Assembly (NCBI GenBank): GCA_021081985.1
Contig: GCA_021081985.1_3639.1
Origin: a phage
Reading direction: 5' to 3' (one strand)
Length of the DNA: 64,000 nt
Below the pieces are notes generated by a model, which did not search any database, was not told the DNA's origin, and saw nothing but the letters and a program-made list of their open reading frames with translations. Positions 26,046 to 40,257 of this stretch are shown here, piece by piece. A program made the position numbers and the translations under genes. How positions within the stretch are numbered: position 1 is the stretch's first letter; every line of letters starts with the position of its first letter.

Positions 26046-26121
26046 GGCCCCTTAGCTCAGTGGTTAGAGCAGGTGACTCATAATCGCTTGGTCGCTGGTT
26101 AAAGTCCAGCAGGGGCCACCA
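26046..26121 (+). tRNA. tRNA-Met (anticodon CAT; could also be Ile2 or initiator)
   Basis: Manual cloverleaf: acceptor GGCCCCT/AGGGGCC, D-arm GCTC..GAGC, anticodon loop cTCATaa, T-arm GCTGG..CCAGC, encoded CCA. Confidence 0.75.
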
Positions 26122-26173
26122 AATGTGGCACACGAAATAAACTAGGTTTATTGTTTTCGGAGGAGAAAACTTA

Positions 26174-26497
26174 ATGGCTAAGAAACAGTCTGCTAAAAAG
26201 GTATCAGCTATCGAGGCGATCAAGCAACCTTTTCAGTTTGAATCAAAATCCACGCAGACACATTCTGCACCGCACGATGTGCGTCTTGGTGGCAAAACGC
26301 AAACTGTAGCAGTTCTGAAAAAACGCAAAGATGAAGACGGTAATACTGAAATGTATTATGAATCTGTGTCTCGTGTCATTGGTGGTGAAGTGATTTCTGC
26401 TTCCTATCGTATCCGTACTGGGAAAACAAAGCGTGAACGAGAAGTGAAACAGAAAACAAGCACTCCTGTAGGAAACGTTAAGAAAACTAAAAAATAA
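26174..26497 (+). CDS. hypothetical basic protein
   Basis: 107 aa, Lys-rich; GGAGGAG RBS. Confidence 0.35.
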   Translation: MAKKQSAKKVSAIEAIKQPFQFESKSTQTHSAPHDVRLGGKTQTVAVLKKRKDEDGNTEMYYESVSRVIGGEVISASYRIRTGKTKREREVKQKTSTPVGNVKKTKK

Positions 26498-26573
26498 TTT
26501 ACTGACGAGAGTGCCACCGTGAGCCAGCGTCATTAAACAAAGGGAATCACGGACATTCAGGAGGGTTGAGATT

Positions 26574-26765
26574 ATGATAGGATCTTTGCTTAAGATTGCA
26601 AGCGATGTAACAACAACGGCTGTTGAAGTGACTGCTGCGGTAACAACTCCGTTTGTTGATTTAGCATCAGATGCTATAGCAGCAGCAGACGAGATGATTT
26701 TGTCACCGACATCTGATCTTGTCCAAGATCTTTGTGATTCTATAAAAGATGCTGTAAAAGATTAA
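26574..26765 (+). CDS. hypothetical small acidic protein
   Basis: 63 aa; AGGAGGG RBS. Confidence 0.3.
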   Translation: MIGSLLKIASDVTTTAVEVTAAVTTPFVDLASDAIAAADEMILSPTSDLVQDLCDSIKDAVKD

Positions 26766-26773
26766 AATTTTTC

Positions 26774-26802
26774 TTGACATAGTTTTTGTTTTTCTGTATA
26801 GT
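26774..26802 (+). promoter_or_regulatory. sigma70-like promoter (TTGACA-17-TATAGT)
   Basis: TTGACAtagtttttgtttttctgTATAGT upstream of the ORF at 26839. Confidence 0.5.
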
Positions 26803-26838
26803 TACTTTATCAAAGCTAATTTACATAGGAGAGATTGA

Positions 26839-27486
26839 ATGTCTACTAAGATTTCCGTAACTCGTGCACTTGCTTCTATCTCTAAGATTGAAGATAAGAT
26901 CAATAAGCGCATTTATAACCTTGAATGTATTAAGATTGCAAAAGGAACTGAGAATAATTGTAAGATTCCTGGTTATATCGGCTCTGTTGATGATTTTAAG
27001 AAATCTGCGATCAACGACTATCAAAGTCTGCAAGACCTCTTGGCAGTTCGCGATGAACTGAAGGCAAAAATTGTCAAGTCTAATGCTGAGACAATTGTCA
27101 AAATTGGTAAGGTGTCTATGACAGTTGCTGAGGCAATCGAACGCAAACGGACGATTTGCTTTAAACAAGAGTTGTTAAACAAACTTTGTGCACAGCGTGC
27201 TTCTGCACAGCTTCTTCTGGCAAAAGAAGAAAAATCTCTGGAAGATAAACTTGAAAATGCCAGAGCGCCATATATCCAACGTGATAAAGCGCCAGATGCA
27301 GAGCAGATTAAGACTGTGGAAGCTCCCATTCGAATGATGAACACACCATCGGTTGTGGATCCTCTTGAACTGGCTTCTAAGATTCGTTCTCTTGAAGAAG
27401 AGATTGAAGATTTCTTGTCTAACGTTGATTTTGCGTTGTCTGAGTCAAACGCTAAGACAGAAATTGAGATTGAGCACTCTCTCTAA
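26839..27486 (+). CDS. hypothetical coiled-coil protein
   Basis: 215 aa; heptad-like charged stretches; AGGAGAG RBS. Confidence 0.4.
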   Translation: MSTKISVTRALASISKIEDKINKRIYNLECIKIAKGTENNCKIPGYIGSVDDFKKSAINDYQSLQDLLAVRDELKAKIVKSNAETIVKIGKVSMTVAEAIERKRTICFKQELLNKLCAQRASAQLLLAKEEKSLEDKLENARAPYIQRDKAPDAEQIKTVEAPIRMMNTPSVVDPLELASKIRSLEEEIEDFLSNVDFALSESNAKTEIEIEHSL

Positions 27487-27520
27487 AAGGCTCTGATAAT
27501 ATCATTATCGTTCCTTTGTT

Positions 27521-27733
27521 TTGAAATTTAAAACATTGCTTTTGATTAACGAAGTTTACATCATCTTGCCTCCTGGGGATTGGAGGTTAAATATTCCCCA
27601 CCATGTATCGTATATGTATGAGGATAATACAGAACATAGATGCAGCGAGGCACACGAAGATGCTTTGTTGTTTCCACTAAGTAAAAGTTCATACAATAAA
27701 GGTCAATGGTTAAATGTGAAAGATGAAACTTGA
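27521..27733 (+). CDS. hypothetical protein
   Basis: 70-aa ORF. Confidence 0.25.
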   Translation: MKFKTLLLINEVYIILPPGDWRLNIPHHVSYMYEDNTEHRCSEAHEDALLFPLSKSSYNKGQWLNVKDET

Positions 27734-27851
27734 AAGTTGACTCTTGAAAGATAAAATTTCGTTTATCATCTGAAATCCTTGACACAGGTTATGGCTCACA
27801 AGATATGGTCTGTAAAGCCTCAAGGCTGTTAATCGGAAGCAATGTCTTATT

Positions 27852-27926
27852 GCTCGTATAGCTCAACGGTAGAGCACCTGCCTTGTAAGCAGGGGGTTGC
27901 AGGTTCGAAACCTGCTGCGAGCACCA
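27852..27926 (+). tRNA. tRNA-Thr (anticodon TGT)
   Basis: Acceptor GCTCGTA/TGCGAGC, D-arm GCTC..GAGC, loop cTTGTaa, T-arm GCAGG-TTCGAAA-CCTGC, CCA encoded. Confidence 0.75.
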
Positions 27927-27928
27927 AT

Positions 27929-28025
27929 GCTGGGTAAGCCCTTTGGCAAGGGCGAGGATTTATAATCCTGAAAATAGACGGGCTAGCCGTTGAATACATA
28001 GGTGGTTCGATTCCATCACCCAGCC
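27929..28025 (+). ncRNA. atypical tRNA-like element (97 nt; intact acceptor, D- and T-arms, aberrant anticodon region)
   Basis: Acceptor GCTGGGT/ACCCAGC, D-arm GCCC..GGGC, T-arm GGTGG-TTCGATT-CCATC, but about 46 nt between D- and T-arms with two hairpins and no encoded CCA. Confidence 0.3.
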
Positions 28026-28226
28026 ACAAGTTTGTTTTATAGTGTATTAGCTTATATTATTCGATATAAATGCCTGATCAGCATTTGTTGTGAATGAGGC
28101 ATACAATGCGTGAGAAAGCTATCGGTGCGCAACGTTGATTTCAAACGTAGTCATGCTCGTAGAGCACCAACTGTGGAAGTTGGAGGGTGGTTGAGTAACC
28201 ATACACTATAAAGCATTCTTTAAAAT

Positions 28227-28311
28227 GGGCGGTGTCCCCACACAAGTCTTCTAAACTTGTACTTAAAAAGTGGGAAGGAAGTGAGAGGTTCGATTCCTCC
28301 ACCGTCTACCA
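28227..28311 (+). ncRNA. atypical tRNA-like element (T-arm, acceptor and CTTCTAA anticodon-like hairpin but no D-arm)
   Basis: GGTTCGATTCC T-loop, acceptor GGGCGGT/ACCGTCT plus ACCA, hairpin CAAGT-cttctaa-ACTTG; does not fold as a canonical cloverleaf by hand. Confidence 0.3.
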
Positions 28312-28387
28312 GATTAACCCCAACTTGAGAATCGTCAGCGCGGCTCGTAAGACCCACTCTATAGGTTCTCTACCTGGGGTGCTTATT

Positions 28388-28464
28388 GCACGGTTGCCGG
28401 AATTTGGTTACGGGTCTGTCTGCAAAACGGATATATGTCGGTTCAAGTCCGACACCGTGCTCCA
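28388..28464 (+). tRNA. tRNA-Cys (anticodon GCA)
   Basis: Acceptor GCACGGT/ACCGTGC, loop cTGCAaa, T-arm GTCGG-TTCAAGT-CCGAC, CCA encoded. Confidence 0.7.
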
Positions 28465-28501
28465 AACTTTCAATTTCTTGGCAAATATGTTAAAATACCA
28501 C

Positions 28502-28530
28502 TTGACAGATATGTTTTTATTTGATAATAT
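28502..28530 (+). promoter_or_regulatory. sigma70-like promoter (TTGACA-17-TAATAT)
   Basis: TTGACAgatatgtttttatttgaTAATAT upstream of ATG 28551. Confidence 0.45.
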
Positions 28531-28550
28531 CATTAAGTGGGGTTTTTAAA

Positions 28551-28898
28551 ATGGCTACTAAGCAGCTTACAAAACGTAGAAGAGGAAAAGGTCGTCCTCT
28601 GAAAGAGGAATCTAATGCAATTCAGTTAGAGAAAAATATCCTAGATTTGAAAACGAATCTGATTGCAATGATTCCTGAAGCTCATCAGGTTCTTAGGGAT
28701 TTGATGAAGAATGTGAATACAAAAGACAATATCAGAGAAAATATCGCTCGTTATGTTATTGAGAAAGGTGAGCAGATGCTTTCTGATTACTTTGATGAGG
28801 AAAACGAAGAGTTACTCGAAAAAGATAACTCAGAAAAAGCGCCTATTAAGGCAGCCAAACCATTCTCGACGGATATTGTTCAATTCAAACAAGGTTAA
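28551..28898 (+). CDS. hypothetical protein (start at internal ATG of track ORF 28521..28898)
   Basis: MATKQLTKRRRGKGRP...; promoter-like element immediately upstream. Confidence 0.35.
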   Translation: MATKQLTKRRRGKGRPLKEESNAIQLEKNILDLKTNLIAMIPEAHQVLRDLMKNVNTKDNIRENIARYVIEKGEQMLSDYFDEENEELLEKDNSEKAPIKAAKPFSTDIVQFKQG

Positions 28899-28899
28899 T

Positions 28900-28989
28900 G
28901 TGTCGTTAGACCGTAGGGGTAGCGGGGGAGACTGTAAATCTCCTGTCTCGAAAGGGACTCGGGTAGTTCGACTCTATCACGGCACACCA
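28900..28989 (+). tRNA. tRNA-Tyr (anticodon GTA), long variable arm
   Basis: Acceptor GTGTCGT/ACGGCAC, loop cTGTAaa, variable-arm hairpin GTCTC-gaaa-GGGAC, T-arm GGTAG-TTCGACT-CTATC, CCA encoded. Confidence 0.7.
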
Positions 28990-29057
28990 ACTAAATCTGT
29001 ACTGGCTTTGATGTGTGACGATACCCTCCAATCGTGGTTGTTGGGTCAGTACAGTTT

Positions 29058-29133
29058 GGGAGTGTAGATCAGTTAGTAGATCGCTCGACCGATAATCGAG
29101 AGGACGTAGGGGCAGAGCCTACCACTCCCACCA
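29058..29133 (+). tRNA. tRNA-Ile-like (anticodon GAT) with non-canonical T-loop and C33; possibly degenerate
   Basis: Acceptor GGGAGTG/CACTCCC, D-arm GATC..GATC, loop ccGATaa, T-arm GTAGG-GGCAGAG-CCTAC. Confidence 0.4.
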
Positions 29134-29138
29134 AATAT

Positions 29139-29213
29139 GCATCCATAGTTTAATTGGGAAAACTACAGCCTTCCAAGCTGAAGTCGAGGGTTCGATGCCC
29201 TCTGGATGCTCCA
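29139..29213 (+). tRNA. tRNA-Gly (anticodon TCC)
   Basis: Acceptor GCATCCA/TGGATGC, D-arm GTTT..AAAC, loop cTTCCaa, T-arm GAGGG-TTCGATG-CCCTC, CCA encoded. Confidence 0.65.
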
Positions 29214-29338
29214 GTTAAAAGATGTCAATGAAATCCGCTTGGGTCAACTGAAGACCGTAACAAATTCCATGGGGTTGTGTTTGCGGTCCAACCCTAGACA
29301 TCTTCTATCTTTAGTAGAAGGCTTTAATACGGACGAGT

Positions 29339-29569
29339 ATGATGGTTTCTAAATTAATCATAACAAGGCATCATAATGCTAAAGAAATAGAGATTGTGAA
29401 TGCTGCTGGCACTCTTGTGCTAAAAGTTGGTAAAGACTGTCCTTTTGAATTGTGCCAGAAGGAACTTTTAAGTTTGTGCGGTTTCAGGTTTAAACAGATT
29501 ATCTTTGAAAATGCTTTTCAATATTCAGACTTAAACCAGTACATTATATCTAGGCTTGATCCTGCATGA
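29339..29569 (+). CDS. hypothetical protein embedded in tRNA array
   Basis: 76-aa ORF. Confidence 0.3.
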   Translation: MMVSKLIITRHHNAKEIEIVNAAGTLVLKVGKDCPFELCQKELLSLCGFRFKQIIFENAFQYSDLNQYIISRLDPA

Positions 29570-30123
29570 GATACTTGAAATATTTATCTTGGATCCTGTT
29601 AGCACCTCTTGATCCAATTATGTCGGCTCTCTGTGTTATTCTGGCTCCTTTTGTTGTTCCGTTCTATAATGAGAAGACAGGGCATCTACCCTATATTTTC
29701 AGGTGGATGGAAACATATGATAATCCTATAGACGGTGACAGAGGACACATAGAGAGATGGGAAGAAGTCCGTAAAATAGGAAGTTTTGGTGTTTACCTAC
29801 AACGAGTTGCTTGGTTGTGGAGAAATAAAGCCTACAATTTTTCCTATCACGTACTTGGACGTGAAATCGCATCTGTGACAAAGTGGAAAGGAAACATCCA
29901 TGTAAGCTCTGATGTGGAGGATAATCAACAAGGCTATTTGTTGATGTGGAATGACAATGCGTGGGGTGTATTCGCGTTTGTCCCGTCTTTTAGATTGTTT
30001 GGAAAACAATTTTACTGGCGAATTTATGTCGGTTGGAAACTGAAGAGTGTGGTTCCTGAAGACAGAGCTTTTTCAAGAGAGAGGGTGATGTTGGCATTTT
30101 TCATAAGTCCTTTCCGAAAATAG
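29566..30123 (+). CDS. hypothetical protein (hydrophobic N-terminus, Trp-rich) embedded in tRNA array
   Basis: 185-aa ORF, ATGA overlap with upstream ORF. Confidence 0.4.
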   Translation: MRYLKYLSWILLAPLDPIMSALCVILAPFVVPFYNEKTGHLPYIFRWMETYDNPIDGDRGHIERWEEVRKIGSFGVYLQRVAWLWRNKAYNFSYHVLGREIASVTKWKGNIHVSSDVEDNQQGYLLMWNDNAWGVFAFVPSFRLFGKQFYWRIYVGWKLKSVVPEDRAFSRERVMLAFFISPFRK

Positions 30124-30129
30124 TTTTTA

Positions 30130-30211
30130 ATGAGAGTAGCGTAACTTCACTGGGTGAAGGCTGGCCTCCAAAACCAGTGACTAAGAGGTTCGATTCCTCA
30201 CTCTCGTGCCA
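30130..30211 (+). tRNA. tRNA-like gene, possible tRNA-Trp (anticodon CCA), irregular D-region
   Basis: Acceptor ATGAGAG/CTCTCGT, loop cTCCAaa, T-loop TTCGATT, CCA encoded; D-region forms a tight 6-bp hairpin instead of a normal D-arm. Confidence 0.35.
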
Positions 30212-30212
30212 A

Positions 30213-30288
30213 AGGGGATTAGCATAGTGGCCTAATGCAACGGGCTTTGACCCCGTGATCGGTTGTTCGAATCAACCATCCCCTGCCA
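30213..30288 (+). tRNA. tRNA-Gln (anticodon TTG)
   Basis: Acceptor AGGGGAT/ATCCCCT, D-arm GCAT..ATGC, loop cTTTGac, T-arm GGTTG-TTCGAAT-CAACC, CCA. Confidence 0.75.
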
Positions 30289-30297
30289 AGTTAAAAC

Positions 30298-30387
30298 GGA
30301 GAAGCAAATCGATTGGCGACGAAACCACATTGGAAATGTGCTGACTGGTAAAACGGCTTGAGAGTTCGATTCTCTCCTTCTCCACCA
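30298..30387 (+). tRNA. tRNA-Ser (anticodon GGA), type II
   Basis: Acceptor GGAGAAG/CTTCTCC, loop tTGGAaa, T-arm GAGAG-TTCGATT-CTCTC, CCA; variable arm pairs weakly. Confidence 0.5.
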
Positions 30388-30401
30388 GTTTTTAAGGATT
30401 T

Positions 30402-31145
30402 ATGTATGCACTCTCCCCAAGAAAAAAAAATGGAAAACAGATATTTAATTTGTTGAAAAGCGGAAAAGGCTTCTCAAACCCGCTTCAATCAGGTCTTTCT
30501 CTGGTTGGTGGTAAAGTAAGTAGTCTATCTTCTTTATCTTCCTCTATTTCTTCGGTAACTAACCCAGCTATAAAGGCTCAATTAGCTGCCGCAGGTTTGA
30601 CAACTGGCGTTTTATCAAATTTTACTTCGTCTCTTGGTTCTGTTACAAGCACGACAAAAACGCTTGTTGATTATGGTCAGAAATCTGTTGAAGAGTTCTC
30701 CCAAAGAATGCACGCAGCGAGTAATTATATGAGTACTCTGAGCAGAATGGGAGAAAAGACAAGTTGTTCAATATTTAGTGACGTTATGTCTGTAGCCACT
30801 GATTTAGGTAAGAAAGCTATGGATGCCGTTAATTCCGCGATGGATGCGGTGAACGATGTTATGTCTCAATTGCAAGATGCAATAAATAAGGGTTTGAATA
30901 CAATATCTAGTTTGGCGAGTAAAGCTGTCTCAGCGATAAACAAAGGGATCCAGAAAATGTCTGAGTATGCTAGCCAAGTGACAAAGATGATTGAAGATGA
31001 AGCAAAGAAGTTGGCAGACTACTTAAAGACAAGTGCTGAAGGATTTCTCGCAGATATCCTACCTGATTGGTTTAACGATTCTTGTAAATCTGGTATAGTT
31101 GACCAGATTGCTACACCAGAGATGAAAGAAGTTCTTAAAAAGTAA
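30402..31145 (+). CDS. hypothetical Ser/Thr-rich helical protein embedded in tRNA array
   Basis: 247-aa ORF between tRNA genes; start may be internal. Confidence 0.4.
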   Translation: MYALSPRKKNGKQIFNLLKSGKGFSNPLQSGLSLVGGKVSSLSSLSSSISSVTNPAIKAQLAAAGLTTGVLSNFTSSLGSVTSTTKTLVDYGQKSVEEFSQRMHAASNYMSTLSRMGEKTSCSIFSDVMSVATDLGKKAMDAVNSAMDAVNDVMSQLQDAINKGLNTISSLASKAVSAINKGIQKMSEYASQVTKMIEDEAKKLADYLKTSAEGFLADILPDWFNDSCKSGIVDQIATPEMKEVLKK

Positions 31146-31147
31146 TT

Positions 31148-31241
31148 GGAAGATTAACCCTAATTTGGTAAGGGGTCTCCCTGCTAAGGAGATAGTAACC
31201 CAGAAATGGGTGTGCCAGTTCAAGTCTGGCATCTTCCTCCA
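31148..31241 (+). tRNA. tRNA-Ser (anticodon GCT), type II
   Basis: Acceptor GGAAGAT/ATCTTCC, loop cTGCTaa, variable-arm hairpin ACCCA-gaaa-TGGGT, T-arm GCCAG-TTCAAGT-CTGGC, CCA. Confidence 0.65.
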
Positions 31242-31320
31242 CTGTATGTCAAGGCTCAGATTTCTTCGGACCTGGGCGTTCGCCTTTGTTGGGTGTATAT
31301 TCTCGGCAGAGGCTATCTTT

Positions 31321-31409
31321 GGAGGCTGGGGTGCATGGTGCACAAGCTGGTTTGAACCCAGTCCCGCTGTAGAGATATGGTGACAGTTCGATTCTGTCAG
31401 CCTCCTCCA
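31321..31409 (+). tRNA. tRNA-Ser (anticodon TGA), type II
   Basis: Acceptor GGAGGCT/AGCCTCC, loop tTTGAac, T-arm GACAG-TTCGATT-CTGTC, CCA. Confidence 0.6.
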
Positions 31410-31632
31410 AGTTATCTTTAATGTAGCTTGTTTAGTTGCTTGGTGTGATTTTTCGGTGGATGGCTGCAACCATCTTATCGATACCCCAGAGCAGTCCGCT
31501 CTTTACTGGCGTAAGCCAAACACTTATGATGGTCATGTAATCGTAATCTATCATTAGTGTGCTCTCCCTGGAGAGCTGTTGCGTATAGCTAATTATTGTG
31601 TGAGTAATTAGCTATTTTAAAGATAATTTGAC

Positions 31633-31709
31633 GGATCTGTAGCCAAATGGTTTAAGGCACTCGACTTTTAATCGAGAGATTGTTGGTTCGAATCCAACCA
31701 GATCCACCA
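31633..31709 (+). tRNA. tRNA-Lys (anticodon TTT)
   Basis: Acceptor GGATCTG/CAGATCC, D-arm GCC..GGC, loop cTTTTaa, T-arm GTTGG-TTCGAAT-CCAAC, CCA. Confidence 0.8.
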
Positions 31710-31718
31710 AAATATTCA

Positions 31719-31809
31719 GGTTCTTTGACCGAGTGGTCGATGGTGACGGCCTGTTAAGCCGTTGGGAGGAATCTCCCCACCGAAGGTTCGAATCCTTCAG
31801 GAACCGCCA
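31719..31809 (+). tRNA. tRNA with anticodon GTT (Asn codons) but type-II body and G73 discriminator
   Basis: Acceptor GGTTCTT/AGGAACC, D-arm ACCG..TGGT, anticodon stem ACGGC/GCCGT with loop cTGTTaa, variable-arm hairpin GGGAG-gaat-CTCCC, T-arm GAAGG-TTCGAAT-CCTTC, disc G, CCA. Confidence 0.5.
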
Positions 31810-31893
31810 ATTCTTGACTTAATCAAGTCACAGATATCACCTAGCCAGCGATACCAGTTAGTAGATTCTGGGACAATTAAAATCTACATTTCT

Positions 31894-31971
31894 CTGTCCG
31901 TAGCGCAGCTTGGGTAGCGCGGGTCACTTGGGATGATCAGGTCGTTGGTTCAAATCCAACCGGACAGACCA
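31894..31971 (+). tRNA. tRNA-Pro (anticodon TGG)
   Basis: Acceptor CTGTCCG/CGGACAG, D-arm GCGC..GCGC, loop cTTGGga, T-arm GTTGG-TTCAAAT-CCAAC, CCA. Confidence 0.75.
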
Positions 31972-32013
31972 ATAAACATATACATATCAAAGCAGAAATG
32001 TACAGAGGATACC

Positions 32014-32205
32014 ATGTTAACAGTTAAAGTCGTATCTCCAAATGATGAACAAATTTTTTGTGGGAAAATTGTTGGGTATTGTGCTCATCAAAAGTCTATA
32101 GCTATTTCAGGTATTGACCAAAAAGTGTTTTTGTCTGAGGATCAGACCGCTTATGTGATCAATGCCAATGGAAAAACTATTTCTGTGTATCGTGGAAAAC
32201 CGTAA
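32014..32205 (+). CDS. hypothetical small protein (internal ATG of track ORF 31933..32205, which overlaps tRNA-Pro)
   Basis: MLTVKVVSPNDEQ...; AGGA RBS 5 nt upstream. Confidence 0.3.
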   Translation: MLTVKVVSPNDEQIFCGKIVGYCAHQKSIAISGIDQKVFLSEDQTAYVINANGKTISVYRGKP

Positions 32206-32219
32206 CTCTTAATATAAAT

Positions 32220-32296
32220 GGGCGATTGATGGAATTGGTATACATGTCAGGCTTAGAACCTGAATTTTGGGGGTTCGAGTCCCTCATCGCCTACCA
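32220..32296 (+). tRNA. tRNA with anticodon TAG (Leu codon CUA) but short variable arm (type-I body)
   Basis: Acceptor GGGCGAT/ATCGCCT, anticodon stem TCAGG/CCTGA with loop cTTAGaa, 5-nt variable loop, T-arm GGGGG-TTCGAGT-CCCTC, A73, CCA. Confidence 0.5.
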
Positions 32297-32301
32297 ATTA
32301 T

Positions 32302-32377
32302 GTGACGGTAACTCAGTTGGTAGAGTGCCTTGCTGAAGACTAGGTGGTCACAGGTTCGAATCCTGTCCGTCACACCA
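32302..32377 (+). tRNA. tRNA-Phe (anticodon GAA)
   Basis: Acceptor GTGACGG/CCGTCAC, D-arm ACTC..GAGT, loop cTGAAga, T-arm ACAGG-TTCGAAT-CCTGT, CCA. Confidence 0.7.
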
Positions 32378-32703: not shown

Positions 32704-32834
32704 GAATTAAAGTGGACACTAAGGAAGGTCGTGGCTGAGTAAACGGTAAGACACTCTCGACATGTAAAGGTTCCTTCGCCACTTTTCTCAAATAACTATA
32801 ATAATAATCCAATCAATCTCCTCTCCTATGCCTA

Positions 32835-32860
32835 ACCCCGCCTCTTGCGGGGTTTTTCTT
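32835..32860 (+). terminator. intrinsic terminator closing the tRNA array
   Basis: AACCCCGCctcttGCGGGGTT followed by TTTTTCTTT. Confidence 0.6.
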
Positions 32861-32906
32861 TATGTGCTAGTCTTTACGCATCTTGTTTTGTACTTAAGGA
32901 TAGCTA

Positions 32907-34267
32907 AGATGTTGCATGTTTTCAAAAAAGAAGATTTTCAAAGAGAGTATGACATTTTGTGCTCTTTTATACCAAAAGGTGTTTATGATTTATTGTCAAA
33001 GCTGGATGTTAAGATAGCTGGCGGTGCAATAACCTCTTTGTTCTCTAATAGTAAAGTCAACGATCTTGATTTGTATTTCCCATCTTGGGAAAGCCTTGAG
33101 ATATTCATTGCGTACATGATGGATAAAAGACTCTTGTCAGGGAAATATGATTTGTCTAAGAAAACAAATGGCTGGGCGTCAGATCAAAAAATAGCATTTA
33201 GGCATTTCTATAAACTTGATCACGGTGATCCAGCATTTTCAAATTTTACAGATCCTCTTTCTATAGGTAGAGAATATGACAATGAATACGATTATTTATG
33301 TGATGAAGATGATAATTTGCCAACCATGAAAAAGGTTGGTGTGACAGATAAGAGTGTGATGTTTTACTTTGGACAAGAGCCTGTCTTTCAATGTGTGGCT
33401 GTGGATGTGTTCAAAACAACAGAAGACATCTTTAGCAAATTTGATTTTACAATAAATATGGGTGCTTTTAACTTCAAAGATGGTGTGTGGGAATTTAATA
33501 GCAATTTCTTAAAACATATTGCTCAAAGAGTTTTGGTTGTAAATCATAAAACTGAATACCCGATTATGTCACTTTTGAGATCTGAAAAATACAAATCTCG
33601 TGGCTATACAATTTCGAAAAAAGAGACAATGAAACTGGCTATGACCATTGCTAACCTTCAGATAGAAGGTTGGGAATCGGCAAAGTCACATCTTAGCGGG
33701 ATGTACGGAATGAAACTGTCAGATATTTTTGATGAGACAAAACAGTTTTCACTTGATTCTTTGGTTGAGTGCCTAGACAGATTAGAATCTTGTTGCCAGC
33801 AGGTAGACAAAAATGTTACCCCTGTGCAACCGTTGCCGTTTAATGATGTATCTAAAGTTAATATGTTTAATATTTTTCAAAGATTAAGAAAAGCAACAGG
33901 CAGGAAATACTTTACAAAACTATATGGGGTTTGTCCTGCTGAAGTTTTCTATCTTATGATGCCAACAAAAGATACACATTATGTTGGGCTTTACAAAGAA
34001 GATATAGCAAATAATTTTCCCACTCTCAGACTTTATGTTGATGAGAAGAAGGCAAGAGAATATTACGAATACCTGTGTGAGTGTGGTAAGACAGATGGTT
34101 ATGGATGCCTAATGTATAAACCTGGGGCAGTTCTCTTAGATGTCTCAATAAGTGATCCATCTAAGATGCAATACGATATCATAACTGATGAGATTAATAT
34201 TTATGAAAACAGAAAAACAACATTGAAAATTGAAAACATTATTGTGTGTGATGGGGATATATCATGA
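32907..34267 (+). CDS. class II nucleotidyltransferase, CCA-adding enzyme / poly(A) polymerase-like (start at internal ATG; track ORF 32828 spans the terminator)
   Basis: KIAGGAITSLFSNSKVNDLDLYF (GG..x10..DxD pol-beta NTase motif) and FDFTINMGA (DxTIN-like motif) resemble tRNA nucleotidyltransferase head-domain motifs; follows the tRNA array. Confidence 0.5.
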
Positions 34268-34665
34268 TATGGTTTAAAACGCTGTTAACTTTCTTTTCTA
34301 GGAACATAAAACAGATAGGTGTTGTTTTGTGTTGTGTGGTTCTCGTCTGTGGTATCTTGGGGATAAAACATTGGTATAATGACCAGTTAACATCGTCCTA
34401 CAACGCAGGTGTCAGCGACACGGATCTTAAATGGGAGAGGATTAACCAGCAAGTTAGAGATCACAACAACGCTTTTAAAAAACAACAGCAGGATAAGATC
34501 GATGAGTTGTCAACCATGTTGGTGAAAGAGAGAGAAATTAATAACCAACTGAAAGAAGACCTTGATAAAAAGGTTAAAAGTTATAGCAAAACACAAGCAG
34601 GAAAACAGGTTTGCCTCGATAACCAGTTTGTTGATATCTATAACGACAGTTTGGGGTCTAAATGA
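34264..34665 (+). CDS. i-spanin (Rz-like inner-membrane spanin)
   Basis: N-terminal TM helix (IGVVLCCVVLVCGILGI) then charged coiled-coil; ATGA-coupled to downstream lipoprotein. Confidence 0.55.
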   Translation: MIWFKTLLTFFSRNIKQIGVVLCCVVLVCGILGIKHWYNDQLTSSYNAGVSDTDLKWERINQQVRDHNNAFKKQQQDKIDELSTMLVKEREINNQLKEDLDKKVKSYSKTQAGKQVCLDNQFVDIYNDSLGSK

Positions 34666-34955
34666 AAAAGTATGTTATCATGGTTCCTTTTCTATTGTTT
34701 ATGTTAACAGGGTGCACTTCACCACCTGAGAGAGTTGTTCCTGTTGCAAAAGAGATCATAATAAGCGATATCCTAGCAAGACCACCCGCTGAAGCTATGA
34801 TACCACCGAAAGAACCTGAAAAATTGCCAGGTGGTCTTAGTAATGCAGATGCTATCGAGGTGATTAAGAAAAACAACATTAAGGCTGCTGAAGATCGTAT
34901 GAAATTAAGAACGTTACAGCAGTATGTAAAGACAATATTTTCTTCAGACAAATAG
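34662..34955 (+). CDS. o-spanin (Rz1-like outer-membrane lipoprotein)
   Basis: Signal peptide with lipobox LTGC, Pro-rich mature part, 97 aa. Confidence 0.6.
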   Translation: MKKYVIMVPFLLFMLTGCTSPPERVVPVAKEIIISDILARPPAEAMIPPKEPEKLPGGLSNADAIEVIKKNNIKAAEDRMKLRTLQQYVKTIFSSDK

Positions 34956-35050: not shown

Positions 35051-36397
35051 TTGAGTAAAGTATTTGGACCTGCCAGTCCTAAACAAAAAATGATTTTGGA
35101 GAGTAAAGCCCAAATTCTAATAATTGGCGGGGCCGCCGGGTGTTTGTCTAAAGACCACGAGGTGTTGACACCATCTGGCTGGATTAAGATATCAGAATGG
35201 TCAGGACAGGACATTCTGCAATATGATAAAGCCACTGGGGAGGCTAAATTTATCCCTCCTTTAGAGTTTGTTAAACTCCCTTGTGAAAAACTTACAAGAA
35301 TAGAAGGTAATGGTATTTGTCAAGAGCTATCTGACGAACATACTGTGATTTATAAACCAGACTATAAATCACAGCCAAGAACACTTTCTTTTTCTGAAGT
35401 GGCAGAAAGACATAACAACTCTGTTAAAAAAGGTTGGACAGGTAAGTTCATAACTACATTTAACTATGATGGGCCTGGGATAGACATGACAGAAGGGGAA
35501 TTAAGGCTTCAGGTTGCTGTCATGGCTGATGGGAGAGTTGTTAAAGAAGGGAAAGATAATTATACACAGATGCGCTTTGCTAAAAAGCGTAAATATGACC
35601 GCTTAATCGAACTTTGTAAAAAGTTTGGATTAAGATATGAAGATAGAGGATCAAAACCCAGTGAAAGATATACCACTGGGGAACAGTACGAGGTCATTGT
35701 ATGGCCTAAATATCCTGATAAAAAATTTACAGAGAAATACTATCAGTGTTCAAATGAACAACTGGAGATAATACTTGATGAGATTTTTCATTGGGATGGT
35801 TCTTTTTGTAAGCCATATGGCGGTAAAACACATAATAGCTTTACAGGTAGATATTTTACTGCTCATAAGACGAACGCTGATTTTGTTCAGTTTATAGGAT
35901 CTTCTCTTGGTTATAATACCACCATAAGCCATGATACAAGAAGTGGAAAGGACAGTTATACTGTTAATATTATGGCTAGAGGAAAAGGATTAAGGTCACT
36001 GGCTAATAAAGACAGAAAAGCTGAGTTTAAAGAGTTTATACCTACGGATGGGTTTAAATACTGCTTTGTAACACAAACAGGTTTCTTTGTTACCAGACTA
36101 GAAGATTGTGTGGTTGTCACTGGGAATAGTGGAAAATCATATCTCCTACAATTGATGCCGCTTGCTTATGTCGATGACCCGCAGACAGCATGTATAATGT
36201 TTCGTAGGACAACACCTCAATTGACAGGTGCAGGTGGACTTTTTGATACAGCGAAAAGTATTTATTTGCAACTCGATAAGGAATGGAAGCCGAAGTTCAG
36301 GGAGAAAGCTCTGGAAGCAATTTTCCCATCTGGGGCAAAGGTGTTGTGGAGACACATGGAGTATGAGAATAACAAATTAGATCATCAGGGTGAATAG
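35051..36397 (+). CDS. terL: terminase large subunit, 5' exon (ATPase N-terminal part) containing an intein in the Walker A loop
   Basis: TTG start with GGAGG RBS; IIGGAAG/[intein]/SGKSYLLQ reconstitutes a GxxGSGKS P-loop; ORF reaches a stop at 36395-36397, probably intron-derived. Confidence 0.65.
   Translation: MSKVFGPASPKQKMILESKAQILIIGGAAGCLSKDHEVLTPSGWIKISEWSGQDILQYDKATGEAKFIPPLEFVKLPCEKLTRIEGNGICQELSDEHTVIYKPDYKSQPRTLSFSEVAERHNNSVKKGWTGKFITTFNYDGPGIDMTEGELRLQVAVMADGRVVKEGKDNYTQMRFAKKRKYDRLIELCKKFGLRYEDRGSKPSERYTTGEQYEVIVWPKYPDKKFTEKYYQCSNEQLEIILDEIFHWDGSFCKPYGGKTHNSFTGRYFTAHKTNADFVQFIGSSLGYNTTISHDTRSGKDSYTVNIMARGKGLRSLANKDRKAEFKEFIPTDGFKYCFVTQTGFFVTRLEDCVVVTGNSGKSYLLQLMPLAYVDDPQTACIMFRRTTPQLTGAGGLFDTAKSIYLQLDKEWKPKFREKALEAIFPSGAKVLWRHMEYENNKLDHQGE
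35141..36127 (+). mobile_element. intein with LAGLIDADG-like endonuclease domain in terL P-loop (about 329 aa)
   Basis: Starts CLSKDHEVLT (block A-like), ends CVVVTGN followed by +1 Ser; internal LQVAVMADGRVV and ILDEIFHWDGS motifs; boundary codons TGT 35141 and AAT 36125 checked. Confidence 0.6.
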
Positions 36398-37659
36398 CTT
36401 GCCCTTCGTGCCTATAACGGTGGAACTCCCTATGGGAAAATACCGTGCCACAGAATATGGAAATATAAAATCTGGGTGTAACGACTATCTCCGATGAGTG
36501 TAGGAGAGTAGAATCACAAGCGATTGGTGATCCAAACGGCACGCCAAGGATGGAAGATATAGTCTGTTCCACATGGAAACATGTGGCGGGTGTTTTAGCA
36601 CACCGCCTCAGTGTAGCGAACTGAGGGGACAATAAGTTGCAGTATACCTTTATAGGTTTTGATGAGGGTTGGTATTAGCTCTCTTTAAACCTCCCTAATT
36701 GTCGGGGAAACCTTTATTGTTTACATAACCAAGCAAATGTGGTAACATGTTTGTGGCCTACACTAACTATGTAGGGTATGGTAATATCATGTAAAATTAG
36801 GTAATCCGCAGCGAAGCATCCCTATGGGATGAACGTTCAACGACTATCGCTTACGGGCGTTAGGGCCAAGCGGTGAGGGAAACCTCCAGTCTTTCAGACT
36901 GCCGAAATGGGAGGATATTTGCGTAATAATATTAAAAAATGTGTTGACTGCCATAGAGAACTTCCTCTTGATAAATTTTTTCTTTCATCAAAAAGTAGTG
37001 ATGGATATTCTGGAGCTTGTAAAGAATGCTACATGTATTATAGACTTAACAACTCCAGAAAGAATAAGGATATGATTAAGAAAGAGGATGCTGCCATGTT
37101 TATACAAGATTTGGTATCATCTGGTGAACTTTTCGAATGCAAAACTTGCCGTAAGAAGTTTTTAGCTGATAATTTTTATACTAAGAGAGATTATGGTAAA
37201 GTGTATCTTGCAACAAATAGATGTAAAAGATGTGAAAAGTTTTACCAAATAGAGAGAAAGTTTGGCATCTCTGAGGAATATTACTTTTCAATGTTGGAAA
37301 GGCAGGGGTTTAAGTGCGAGATATGTAAAATACCTTTGGAAGATTATAAAAATCAAGGGTATAGAGATTTTTTCTCCGTAGATCATGACCATAAGACAGG
37401 GAAGATTAGAGGTTTGTTATGCGATAAGTGTAACAGGGCTTTGGGATTTTTCGGAGAAAATGAGGAAACACTTTTAAATGCCGCAGAATATATACGCAAA
37501 TATAAGATATAGTCTGGTCTGCATGGTGACATGCAGCAGCACGTAGTGGTGCGGGATAAGAGTAGCGATCTTATCTGAACAAAAACGACACAATTCACAT
37601 GGTCACAGATAGATTATCTGATATCTCGTCTACGTTCAAACTCTAAATATCCGAGCAGG
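36398..37659 (+). mobile_element. putative group I intron in terL carrying an HNH homing-endonuclease ORF (boundaries approximate)
   Basis: 1.26-kb interruption between two terL reading frames; contains aattgtcggggaaacc (P-like, 36667-36682), gggtatggtaata (36774-36786), aatccgcagcg (Q-like, 36803-36813), gttcaacgactat (R-like, 36835-36847) resembling conserved group I core elements recalled from the Tetrahymena and T4 introns. Confidence 0.55.
36907..37512 (+). CDS. HNH (His-Me finger, Endo VII-like) homing endonuclease encoded within the terL intron
   Basis: 201 aa; several CxxC pairs and VDHDHKTGKIRGLLCDKCNRALGFF matching the DHDH...RGLLC..CN motif of T4 endonuclease VII-type nucleases. 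Confidence 0.65.
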   Translation: MGGYLRNNIKKCVDCHRELPLDKFFLSSKSSDGYSGACKECYMYYRLNNSRKNKDMIKKEDAAMFIQDLVSSGELFECKTCRKKFLADNFYTKRDYGKVYLATNRCKRCEKFYQIERKFGISEEYYFSMLERQGFKCEICKIPLEDYKNQGYRDFFSVDHDHKTGKIRGLLCDKCNRALGFFGENEETLLNAAEYIRKYKI

Positions 37660-38700
37660 ATGGTTATCTCTTGTAACCCTGATCCAGATCATAAGATTAA
37701 AGAGTTGATTTCTTGGTATTTAGACGATGAGGGGTATCCTATACCTGAACGTGACGGGGTGATTAGATGGTTTATAAGACGTGACGGGGAGTTTATCTGG
37801 GGTGAATCAGAGCAAGAATTAATTGAAAAGTATTGGGATGGCAAGGATGAGAAAAGAAAGCCTAAACCACTTTCATTTTCCTTCATTTCCGCAACAATAT
37901 TCGATAATCCTCCCATGCTGGAGAATAACCCAGATTATCTAGCATTCCTTGAAGGTCTTCCAGAGGTAGAAAAAGCCCAGTTATTGCATGGAAACTGGAA
38001 CGCAAGACCTGAAGGGGCAAACTATTTCCAGAGATCTTATTTAAAAGAGGTTCCCTGCTTACCTCTCGGTGTTGTATCTGTTCGTCCGTATGATAAAGCA
38101 GGTACAGAAAGAACATCTGGAAACAGATATCCTGACTTTACAGCATCTGTTAAGGTAAGTAAAGACAATGATGGTTTTTACTACTTGTCTGGTGATTATT
38201 GTCCTGAATTTTTTGATGATGGTAGATATTCGACTCAAACGCAGGGAAGATTCTGTAAAAAAGCTGGGGAACGTGATGTTATCATTAAGAAACAGGCTTA
38301 TTTTGATGGTGATGATGTCACCATAATTTTCAGTGTTGACCCAGGACAAGCAGGAATAAGTGAATTTTTAACAAGCTCCCGTGAACTAATAGCGGAAGGG
38401 TTTACAGTAGAAAAAGATCCTACACCAAGCAATAAATCAAAATTAACACGATTCACACCGTTTGCAAAACTTGCTCAAGCAGGTATGGTGAGAATAGTTC
38501 GTGATAGTTTTGATCCTAAAACTTATGAAGCCCTTATGACAGAGCTTGAAAAGTTCAATGGGGAAAGGAGTACTACGACAAGAAAAGACGATTGGGTCGA
38601 CGCCATTTCTTCTGGGATAAATTATCTTGAAAAAGAAGAAATAGTCAAACCTGTTGTTATTCCAAAAATTGTAGCTCCTACCTTGTATAAAAGAATATAA
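37660..38700 (+). CDS. terL: terminase large subunit, 3' exon (Walker B and nuclease domain); true exon start may lie slightly upstream
   Basis: ELISWYLDDEG Walker-B-like (hhhhDDE) soon after start; acidic residues consistent with RNase H-like nuclease domain; track coordinates used. Confidence 0.65.
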   Translation: MVISCNPDPDHKIKELISWYLDDEGYPIPERDGVIRWFIRRDGEFIWGESEQELIEKYWDGKDEKRKPKPLSFSFISATIFDNPPMLENNPDYLAFLEGLPEVEKAQLLHGNWNARPEGANYFQRSYLKEVPCLPLGVVSVRPYDKAGTERTSGNRYPDFTASVKVSKDNDGFYYLSGDYCPEFFDDGRYSTQTQGRFCKKAGERDVIIKKQAYFDGDDVTIIFSVDPGQAGISEFLTSSRELIAEGFTVEKDPTPSNKSKLTRFTPFAKLAQAGMVRIVRDSFDPKTYEALMTELEKFNGERSTTTRKDDWVDAISSGINYLEKEEIVKPVVIPKIVAPTLYKRI

Positions 38701-38715
38701 CAGAGGGGATAATTC

Positions 38716-40257
38716 GTGTCAACAAGATTTGCACAACAAGAAGAGATTTCTAAAGCAGGTAATGAGAGACTTGCTGTTAGTCGTCTTCGCACCGGAGAGT
38801 TAGGCTCTGGTGCTCTTTCTCAACTTAGGGCTGAATCAGAAATTATGAAAGTTAAGGAGTTGAGATGGCCTAATTTCATCGCCACTGTTGAAGCCATGAA
38901 GCAAGACCATACAGTTTCCACAGCCCTTGATACAAAGTATGTCTTTGTAACCAAAGCATTCAATGACTTTAAAATCTTGTACAACAGAGATAGCAGAAAA
39001 TCTAAGAAAGCTGCTGAGTTTGTGGAGTATGCACTGAAGAATCTTGCTAATCAACAAACTCTGCGTGATATAGCCCGAAGCGCAGCAACGTTCAATGAGT
39101 ATGGGTTTTCGATATTTGAAAAAGTTTATCGTACTGAGCCAGAGACTTCAAGGTATGCTGGGTATATTACGATTGATAAAATTGCATTCAGGCCACAGTG
39201 CAGTCTTTCTAGATCAAAGCCTTGGGTATTTGATGCCGATGGCAAGACGCTGAAGGGCATTAACCAAAGCAGTTTGGCTTTCTCTAATTTACAAAACGGA
39301 ATGCTAGGTGACACTTTAAGCATTATACGTAAATTAACTAATGGTGATGATGTTTTTATTCCAGTTAATAAGTTGATGATAATGAGTTTGGGAGGTACAG
39401 AATCAAACCCGGCTGGGGTATCACCATTAGTGGGTTGTTATAGGGCATTCCGAGAGAAGATCCTTATAGAAAATTTGGAGACTATTGGGGCATCTAAAGA
39501 CCTTGGTGGTATCATAGAACTTAAAATACCTTCCCAGATCCTTAATAAAGCAGCAATAGACCCAACATCACCAGAAGCTGCTATGGTGCAAGGATTAATG
39601 GCAGATGCTGCTAACGCACATGCTGGAGAACAAGCCTACTTTATTTTACCATCTGATCTCAATAACCAAGGTGGTAAACAATATGAAATGTCTCTCAAAG
39701 GGATAGATGGGGCAGGTAAACAATACAGCACTCAAGAGCTTGTTAATTCTCGCAAGAAGGCCATTCTTGATCGCTTTGGTGCTGGGTTTATTAACTTAGG
39801 TAACGACGGGCAGGGATCTTATAATCTTTCAGAATCAAAACAGACTATTCATGGTCATTTTGTCCAGAGAGATATTGATATTATTACCGAGGCGTTCAAT
39901 AAGAACTTAATACCCCAACTTCTTGCTTTGAATGATATAAGATTATCTGACGAAGATATGCCTAGATTAAAACCTGGACTTATTCAAGAAGTTGATATGG
40001 AAGGGTTCTCTAAATTTGTTCAGCGTATTGGTGCTGTTGGGTACTTGCCTAAGACACCTACAGTTATTAATAAAATTCTTGAGGTTGGTGGTTTTGACGA
40101 AGAAATCCCAGAAGATATGGACCTTGAAGAGTTGTTGCAAATTCTTGGTCAGGATGTAAGTCGTTCTGGTGATGGGATGACTCCAGGGTCAACAGGTAAC
40201 GGAACATCAAAAATATCAACAGTGAGGGATAATTCTGTTTCTAATTTAGAGAATTAA
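38716..40257 (+). CDS. portal protein
   Basis: 513 aa immediately after terL; size and position typical of portal; GTG start with GAGGGG RBS. Confidence 0.55.
   Translation: MSTRFAQQEEISKAGNERLAVSRLRTGELGSGALSQLRAESEIMKVKELRWPNFIATVEAMKQDHTVSTALDTKYVFVTKAFNDFKILYNRDSRKSKKAAEFVEYALKNLANQQTLRDIARSAATFNEYGFSIFEKVYRTEPETSRYAGYITIDKIAFRPQCSLSRSKPWVFDADGKTLKGINQSSLAFSNLQNGMLGDTLSIIRKLTNGDDVFIPVNKLMIMSLGGTESNPAGVSPLVGCYRAFREKILIENLETIGASKDLGGIIELKIPSQILNKAAIDPTSPEAAMVQGLMADAANAHAGEQAYFILPSDLNNQGGKQYEMSLKGIDGAGKQYSTQELVNSRKKAILDRFGAGFINLGNDGQGSYNLSESKQTIHGHFVQRDIDIITEAFNKNLIPQLLALNDIRLSDEDMPRLKPGLIQEVDMEGFSKFVQRIGAVGYLPKTPTVINKILEVGGFDEEIPEDMDLEELLQILGQDVSRSGDGMTPGSTGNGTSKISTVRDNSVSNLEN

Follow-up and report, generated by a model that had tools for sequence, protein, structure and literature searches.

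The large terminase gene (terL) in a 64,000-nucleotide (nt) stretch of phage DNA (contig GCA_021081985.1_3639.1 of assembly GCA_021081985.1, hereafter the window), which derives from a Vequintavirinae (rV5-like) coliphage, carries a predicted intein within Walker A and two tandem group I introns on either side of a 33-nt exon that encodes Walker B. We favor, at a probability of roughly 0.9, a reading in which two consecutive group I self-splicing events are followed by protein splicing and in which the second intron is mobile by means of a His-Me finger nuclease. The initial annotation had placed one group I intron with an HNH gene, positions 36398–37659, between two terL open reading frames (ORFs). 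These ORFs (35051–36397, 448 amino acids (aa), and 37660–38700, 346 aa, the latter matching Pfam Terminase_6N and Terminase_6C) and the nuclease ORF lie at or within one base of where they had been placed, and a group I intron with an HNH gene does split terL. However, the 1.26-kb gap is not one element: it comprises intron 1 (36392–36636), a mini-exon (36637–36669), and intron 2 (36670–37587). We take both introns to be IA2-like in the Michel–Westhof classification. The decisive evidence comes from empty-site alleles, orthologues, and covariation. The features of the locus are as follows.

35051–35140, plus strand: terL exon 1, N-extein part; TTG start, ending ...LIIGGAAG, the first half of Walker A (from the ORF list and alignment to the PVP-SE1, EduardKellenberger, and Barba33A TerL proteins)
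35141–36127, plus strand: intein, 329 aa; Cys1, block-B His67, ...VVVTGN at the end and then Ser+1; LAGLIDADG-like motifs LQVAVMADG and ILDEIFHWDGS
36128–36391, plus strand: terL exon 1, C-extein part; SGKSYLL...NNKLDHQG, last base U36391
36392–36636, plus strand: group I intron 1; 245 nt, no ORF, IA2-like with P7.1/P7.2, terminal G36636
36637–36669, plus strand: mini-exon; 33 nt, LQYTFIGFDEG (Walker B, hhhhDE), last base U36669; the same 11 residues are colinear in uninterrupted TerL proteins
36670–37587, plus strand: group I intron 2; 918 nt, IA2-like, HNH ORF in the P8 loop, terminal G37587
36907–37512, plus strand: Endo VII-type HNH (His-Me finger) nuclease ORF in the P8 loop of intron 2; two N-terminal CxxC...CxxC zinc-ribbon-like pairs
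37588–38700, plus strand: terL exon 3; begins TQFTWSQIDYLISRLRS..., encodes the remaining ATPase domain and the RNase H-like nuclease domain

To define the product of the gene, we aligned the translation of the joined segments 35051–36391, 36637–36669, and 37588–38700 to the uninterrupted TerL proteins of PVP-SE1 (499 aa), EduardKellenberger, and Rheinheimera phage Barba33A. With the intein taken out, there were no gaps across either junction with any of the three (...HQG/LQYTF(I/V)GFDEG/TQF(T/E)W...). The joined precursor has 828 aa with the intein and 499 aa without it. The latter length equals that of PVP-SE1 TerL, to which the mature protein aligns over its full extent with a single internal block free of gaps; identity was 81.6% over the 223 residues flanking the junctions. 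Only once the intein and both introns had been removed in silico did Walker A, Walker B, and the nuclease domain become colinear with the Terminase_6N/6C family. Thus, the alignment to intron-less TerL proteins that the initial annotation had proposed as a check is gap-free, but only with all three insertions removed at the revised junctions. The supposed contiguity of the exon 1 tail with the start of the second ORF does not hold, as 35 residues (LQYTFIGFDEG plus TQFTWSQIDYLISRLRSNSKYPSR) stand between them. The latter 24 residues, encoded by 37588–37659, are conserved coding sequence in the uninterrupted TerL proteins, and ATG 37660 is internal to exon 3, which starts 72 nt upstream. The final two codons of the first ORF (GAA TAG, 36392–36397) are already intron sequence, and in-frame stops lie just inside both introns. 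Splicing rather than a split protein, as had been suggested, would be the right idea with the wrong anatomy, the real 3′ splice site lying 72 nt upstream of the one assumed, and the 448-aa ORF that had been taken as plain exon 1 holds the unnoticed 329-aa intein. The Walker B exon was missed both by automatic gene callers and by the initial annotation; the correct terL coding sequence for annotation is join(35051..36391, 36637..36669, 37588..38700) with an intein at 35141..36127.

Natural alleles that lack one or the other intron define the splice junctions. The exons of Escherichia phages 18-1-2, 19-1-2, 24-2-1, and vB_EcoM_TH18 (Vequintavirinae) are 98% identical to the window region, and Av-05 is also related; in the GenBank records of TH18, 18-1-2, and Av-05, terL is broken up into two or three fragments, each annotated as “terminase large subunit”. 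Av-05 matches the window to 36391 and resumes at 36637, without exactly the 245 nt of intron 1 (junction GATCATCAGGGT/TTGCAGTATACC, CAGGGT/TTGCAG). TH18 matches to 36668 and resumes at 37588, and both TH18 and the metagenome contig L137 (99% identical in the flanks) are without exactly the 918 nt of intron 2 (TH18 junction GATGAGGGA/ACACAATTC, GATGAGGGA/ACACAA; empty-allele sequence at the site ...TTCATCGGCTTTGATGAGGGAACACAATTC... in both). Because these empty-site alleles exist, the junctions of both introns are fixed, and with them the borders of the mini-exon, Av-05 giving one side and TH18/L137 the other. Both group I rules hold: the 5′ exons end in U (U36391 and U36669), and the introns end in G (G36636 and G37587), with P1 U·G pairs at U36391·G36401 (intron 1) and U36669·G36678 (intron 2). 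Shifting intron 2 by one base would leave the protein identical, yet it would break both the U and the G rule; for intron 1, the Av-05 sequence permits no shift. We rejected a 3′ end of intron 1 at G36627 (giving HQG-DNK-LQY), as Av-05 and all homologues have HQG/LQY and related introns end in ...ACAAxAAG. We also rejected the P1 that Rfam proposes for intron 2 (ACCUUUAU/AUGAGGGU), which would put the splice site inside Walker B; the pairing GAGGGU/GCUCUC is kept in all four aligned homologues.

The alleles additionally bear a footprint of mobility. Every allele with intron 2 has GAGGGT at the 5′ splice site, compared with GGA, GGC, or GGG in empty alleles, and the 33-nt exon of the empty TH18 and L137 alleles shows clustered synonymous changes. 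This pattern would be expected from P1 constraints together with co-conversion or target immunity. Separately, in the deposited Av-05 genome (KM190144), a segment that begins at the 3′ end of intron 2, spans the first part of exon 3, and reaches the site 3 intron (see below) has the reverse orientation compared to the window, and one of the Av-05 terL fragments is annotated on the opposite strand; this may reflect either misassembly or recombination between intron copies.

We searched the window for group I cores with Rfam. At the gathering threshold, a scan of the whole window returned tRNAs only. A permissive scan of 36200–37900 gave three Intron_gpI matches, all under the 50-bit threshold: 36336–36586 (34.5 bits, E 1.1e-6), a complete core on its own that corresponds to intron 1, and 36642–36997 (40 bits, E 2.6e-8) and 37326–37536 (29 bits), the 5′ and 3′ core parts of intron 2 separated by its ORF. 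One complete core plus one ORF-split core gave the first indication that the gap holds two introns. The helices of the two introns, all of which can be written with canonical pairs, are as follows.

Intron 1, first part: P1 36387–93/36399–405; P3 36407–12/36538–43; P4 36417–21/36442–46; P5 36427–30/36434–37
Intron 1, second part: P6 36447–54/36471–77; P7 36483–88/36559–64; P7.1 36489–92/36503–06; P7.2 36513–17/36527–31
Intron 1, third part: P8 36544–46/36551–53; P9 36569–75/36580–86; P9.2 36607–12/36620–25
Intron 2, first part: P1 36664–71/36676–83; P3 36690–95/36909–14; P4 36701, 36703–06/36805–09; P5 three-way extension 36711–36801; P6/P6a 36811–36
Intron 2, second part: P7 36842–47/37509–14; P8 36915–23/37495–503; P9 37519–25/37530–36; P9.1 37539–42/37549–52; P9.2 37554–61/37569–76

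Both introns contain the P4–P6 and P3–P8 domains with the P3/P7 pseudoknot, backed by covariation. For intron 2, we aligned four sequences: the window and rV5_ev168 copies (ORF interiors removed), the ORF-less allele of contig L134, and the rV5 intron. We counted 77 pairs, in P1, P3, P4, P5 and its three-way extension, P6/P6a, P7 (the pseudoknot), P9, P9.1, and P9.2; P8 and P7.1/P7.2 were left out because MAFFT could not align them across the homologues. Of the cells, 97.7% pair, and double-sided changes occur in 19 pairs compared to 1–3 when the partners are slid; none of 500 shuffles attained the observed values. P8, with nine perfect pairs, encloses the nuclease ORF, and a P8 with compensatory changes (GAAUGUG/CACAUUC) occupies the corresponding position in rV5_ev168. 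The P7–P3′ segment of the window copy has an extra 27 nt. The four RNA strings that the initial annotation had quoted as resembling group I core elements are located at 36697–36712, 36774–36786, 36803–36813, and 36835–36847 and fall, respectively, in J3/4-P4, the P5 extension, P4′-P6, and J6/7-P7 of intron 2.

Simple deletion does not explain the ORF-less allele in L134 (7611–7973): it is almost identical to the window copy in its middle and 3′ parts, but over the 5′ third (P1–P5), where P3 and P5 are compensated, identity is only ~70%. This mosaic suggests recombination between intron lineages.

Intron 1 required a different approach. In BLAST, full-length relatives appeared only in four near-identical marmot-phage records, and the 3′ half resembled introns of PhiPA3 and Kuravirus XT18. 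We therefore built a covariance model from P3–P9 of intron 1 to reach relatives beyond the BLAST range, and obtained full-length matches to the XT18 intron (86 bits), to introns at two further terL sites described below (sites 3 and 4; 70–85 bits), to an intron in the metagenomic contig L131 (85 bits), and to others, including introns that score 72–96 bits in Rfam. In the resulting alignment, 95.5% of cells pair, double-sided changes occur in 43 of 45 pairs (12–26 in slid controls), and the covariation score is 0.597 (at most 0.104 in controls). As the alignment was fitted to the model, it supports a shared fold and is not independent proof. The centroid fold of intron 1 contains P1, P3, P4, P5, P6, P7.1, P9, P9.1, and P9.2, with a z-score of −3.17. 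None of the records compared has an intron annotated at this site. The distant terL of L131 carries its intron 1-like group I intron (3795–4110) 1 nt downstream of site 1 (CAA GGG U/...AAAAG/UA CAA UAU), has no intron 2, and encodes an intein 56% identical to that of the window. We count this apparently independent occurrence of an intron 1-like element in favor of the two-intron reading.

Exon 1 contains the third insertion, in-frame exactly between GGAAG and SGKS of the P-loop and absent from the PVP-SE1 and EduardKellenberger TerL proteins. Homologous inserts with the same ends occur in the P-loops of other TerL proteins, of a RecD/PIF1-like helicase (GPAG/C...TGN/CGKT), of DnaB/KaiC-like ATPases, and in a toprim protein (primase). 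C1, H67, and the terminal TGN (N329) are invariant in eight aligned intein homologues, and the +1 residue is S or C. The insert thereby has the sequence hallmarks of a class 1 intein, namely a conserved in-frame site, Cys1, the block-B His, a C-terminal Asn, and Ser+1. A profile of the insert matched the solved AceL NrdHF intein 6zgq (E 3.4e-7) over the N-terminal 72 residues only, and Pfam LAGLIDADG_3 gave a weak match (E 0.058). We consider it a probable intein of known type with a very divergent sequence. Genes with both introns and an intein are known, for example bnrdE/F of SPbeta.

The nuclease ORF of intron 2 had been recognized from its DHDH...RGLLC..CN motif, and this assignment held: Pfam Endonuclease_7 (PF02945) matches with E 4.7e-20 (71.7 bits, cut-off 23.6), and PHROG “endonuclease VII” families match with E 8e-33. 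In alignments to Hpy99I (E 3.3e-6) and T4 endonuclease VII (E 0.002), the catalytic and zinc residues of KCEIC...VDHDH...RGLLCDKCN (CxxC...DHDH...CxxCN) are in register. The closest relatives, ~70% identical at the aa level, are encoded by introns that occupy this terL site in 30 Vequintavirus records. Presence of the intron and of its ORF is polymorphic among 97–99.7% identical genomes. The protein most likely acts as a homing endonuclease.

The ORF overlaps the ribozyme core. ATG 36907 lies inside the P3′ strand, and the stop codon TAG (37510–12) lies in P7′ (the J8/7-P7′ segment). An in-frame TTG at 36919, 4 nt past the GGAGG of P3′ (36910–14), aligns with the start in rV5_ev168 (GGGAGGGUGA-AUG). 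With ribosome-binding site and start in P3′ and stop in P7′, translation of the nuclease and folding of the ribozyme should therefore exclude each other. ORFs that extend into core pairings have been described as tightly controlled (PMC3984707).

We compared the window with six ENA metagenome contigs (L133–L138; 97–99.7% identity) and scanned these with Rfam. The comparison revealed two further intron sites, both empty in the window.

37898–37899, plus strand: intron site 3; occupied in TH18, rV5, and L135–L138, with or without an HNH_3 ORF
38592–38593, plus strand: intron site 4; 276-nt intron in L133–L136 and L138, 822-nt copy with a 190-aa ORF in L137
L133: intron 1 present; intron 2 with ORF; site 3 empty; site 4 intron
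L134: intron 1 present; intron 2 ORF-less; site 3 empty; site 4 intron
L135: intron 1 present; intron 2 ORF-less; site 3 ORF-less intron; site 4 intron
L136: intron 1 present; intron 2 with ORF; site 3 intron with HNH_3 ORF; site 4 intron
L137: intron 1 present; intron 2 absent, empty exactly as in TH18; site 3 ORF-less intron; site 4 intron with 190-aa ORF
L138: intron 1 present; intron 2 ORF-less; site 3 intron with ORF; site 4 intron

L136 thus has an intein and four introns in a single gene. The site 3 and site 4 introns score 96 and 72 bits in Rfam, both above threshold; the site 4 junction, ambiguous by one T in BLAST, was placed by the U at −1 and the G as last intron base. The exact 448-aa product of the first ORF is encoded on at least 24 metagenome contigs, from which the six compared here were taken. 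Together, the window and its sister contigs form a compact natural series of one intein and four intron sites, present or absent and with or without nuclease genes, in genomes similar enough (97–99.7%) to be useful for studying homing, co-conversion, and intron gain and loss.

Several observations weigh against the reading we favor. Both window introns as they stand fall short of the Rfam gathering score, so the Rfam check suggested with the initial annotation succeeds for the ORF-less allele of intron 2 in L134 and L135 (67.4 bits) and not for the window itself. For intron 2, the low score is attributable to the 606-nt ORF and peripheral insertions because the ORF-less allele and the 319-nt, ORF-less rV5 orthologue (84.9 bits) pass; the ORF-bearing rV5_ev168 copy scores 50.8. 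Intron 1 is below 50 bits in every copy, always at 34.5; it is essentially one sequence, and its covariation rests on an alignment fitted to its own model. Its P8 is minimal (3 bp), P7.1/P7.2 of intron 2 can be folded in two alternative ways, and we looked for a convincing P10 in both introns and found none. Finally, Pfam intein models gave no match to the insert in exon 1.

Taken together, the mechanism we propose is one in which terL needs three self-splicing steps before an active protein can form. Each intron would fold into a P1–P9 ribozyme whose internal guide pairs with the exon end AGGGU and would leave by two guanosine-started transesterifications, so that exon 1, ending at 36391, is joined to the 33-nt mini-exon and this in turn to exon 3, starting at 37588. 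Excision of the 329-aa intein from the P-loop of the 828-aa product would then leave a TerL of 499 aa in which both Walker A (GGAAG-SGKS) and Walker B (FIGFDE) are intact again. In co-infections, the nuclease would cut intron-less terL alleles, and repair would copy intron 2 in. The anatomy, junctions, RNA structure, and mobility footprint of the introns are shown by the alleles and alignments described above; from the sequences, we infer that RNA splicing, protein splicing, and a nuclease specificity of this kind operate in the window phage.

An extension of this mechanism is suggested by the 5′ splice-site contexts 36384–36391 (AUCAGGGU) and 36662–36669 (AUGAGGGU), which are nearly identical and 278 nt apart in the DNA. 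Each guide can pair with either exon end; the computed duplex energies are −6.9 and −7.8 kcal/mol (guide 1) and −4.0 and −7.5 kcal/mol (guide 2). On occasion, the intron 2 ribozyme might therefore react at the upstream site and leave out the 33-nt exon, giving an in-frame TerL without Walker B as an isoform that times packaging, and the same match could account for colonization of site 1 and the spread of intron 1. We regard this as unlikely. If true, the Walker B-less TerL might be a regulated or dominant-negative isoform, the splice-site match would explain how site 1 was colonized (guide-directed ectopic insertion), and cleavage by the intron 2 nuclease at a distance of 33 bp would let the ORF-less intron 1 spread through co-conversion.

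It is also conceivable, at rather long odds, that only intron 2 splices well and that intron 1 is decaying or cofactor-dependent and splices poorly on its own. The sub-threshold Rfam score in every copy, the 3-bp P8, and the lack of an ORF would fit, and some Bastillevirinae phage introns splice only in vivo (PMC11878797). Against this, the core helices, both P7 strands, the P1 U·G pair, and the terminal G of intron 1 are all intact, and the relatives reached with its model include those introns of 72–96 bits. The intron is kept at 99% in four phage records (deposited isolates, complete or near-complete) and at least 24 metagenome contigs. Because the carrier phages were deposited as isolates and need TerL, we consider decay of intron 1 unlikely.

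A fractured gene, with no RNA splicing and with terL pieces that are translated separately and then assemble, as in Aeh1 NrdA split by mobE, is highly improbable. Such cases exist (cited in PMC7344957), and the second ORF has its own ATG at 37660. However, this model fails because the mini-exon has no start codon or ribosome-binding site and Walker B would be lost. In addition, conserved coding sequence extends for 24 residues on the upstream side of ATG 37660, compensatory changes have preserved the group I fold of both inserts, and exon ends co-vary with intron presence in the way that P1 pairing requires. A single group I intron at 36398–37659 joining ...DHQGE to MVISCNPDP..., for which one could cite the ends of the two long ORFs at those coordinates and the group I core motifs and HNH ORF between them, is already refuted by the allele comparison, as empty-site alleles drop 36392–36636 and 36670–37587 independently. 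In addition, Rfam finds two complete cores, the ends at 36397 and 37659 do not fit the group I pattern of a U before the intron and a G as its last base, and such an intron would take away 35 conserved residues that every uninterrupted homologue has, Walker B (FIGFDE) and the DYLISRLRS helix among them.

As in rV5, the lysis and packaging genes are preceded by a cluster of 14 tRNA genes (26046–32377); after this cluster, two small overlapping ORFs (34264–34955) are syntenic with the rV5 spanin pair, and the portal gene (38716–40257) directly follows terL. For the upstream ORF at 32828–34267, the homologue in L133–L138 has been assigned the precomputed Pfam label PF26128 (Gad2, an anti-Gabija protein); we did not reproduce this label, as the window ORF matched no family in hmmscan.

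None of the element types in the window terL is new, and introns in the terL of rV5 have been known since 2013, when Kropinski et al. described the gene as divided in three by introns, one with a homing endonuclease (PMC3606486). RefSeq NC_011041 gives the rV5 coding sequence rv5_gp065 as a three-part join, and for a related terL intron, that of the Vequintavirinae phage CB7, splicing was demonstrated by RT-PCR (PMC7344957). The rV5 and Vequintavirus introns share with window intron 2 the codon position (FDEG/TQF), the P1 guide (GCUCUC), and the architecture, at about 69–77% nt identity, and in ORF-bearing copies (rV5_ev168, “putative recombination endonuclease VII”), the P8 loop likewise holds an Endo VII ORF, orthologous to that of the window (~70% aa identity). 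In contrast, rV5 itself has an ORF-less intron 2 and an intron at site 3, which is empty in the window, and has neither intron 1 nor the intein; compared to rV5, window intron 2 has 27 additional nt in the P7.2 region, and its P5 extension has diverged. With about 69% nt identity, we regard window intron 2 as a divergent orthologue of the rV5 site-2 intron.

The T-even IA2 introns (td, nrdB, and sunY) are likewise compact ribozymes in protein genes with P7.1/P7.2 between P7 and P3′, and they too have an endonuclease ORF in a peripheral loop with translation signals that overlap core pairings, as in window intron 2. They differ in host gene, in nuclease (GIY-YIG in I-TevI and I-TevII rather than an Endo VII-type His-Me finger), and in the position of the ORF (P6 or P9 rather than P8). 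The P7–P3′ segment with P7.1/P7.2 is characteristic of IA2 introns (PMC3984707). The P-loop inteins of phage ATPases are likewise class 1 (Cys1...Asn/Ser), carry a LAGLIDADG-like domain, sit in Walker A, and have relatives in unrelated ATPases; compared to these, the window intein is very divergent, matches no Pfam intein model, and has Gly rather than the usual His as its penultimate residue. Tandem group I introns with short internal exons have been reported in Twort orf142, SIOphi, and the phiNIT1 ribonucleotide reductase large subunit, exon skipping between tandem introns has been observed in Twort orf142 and SIOphi, and Bastillevirinae TerL genes with two or three introns are on record (all PMC11878797). 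The window terL resembles these systems in having several group I introns in one phage gene with small exons between them. In contrast to Twort, SIOphi, and phiNIT1, its internal exon is only 33 nt long and encodes the catalytic Walker B, and its two 5′ splice sites are nearly identical.

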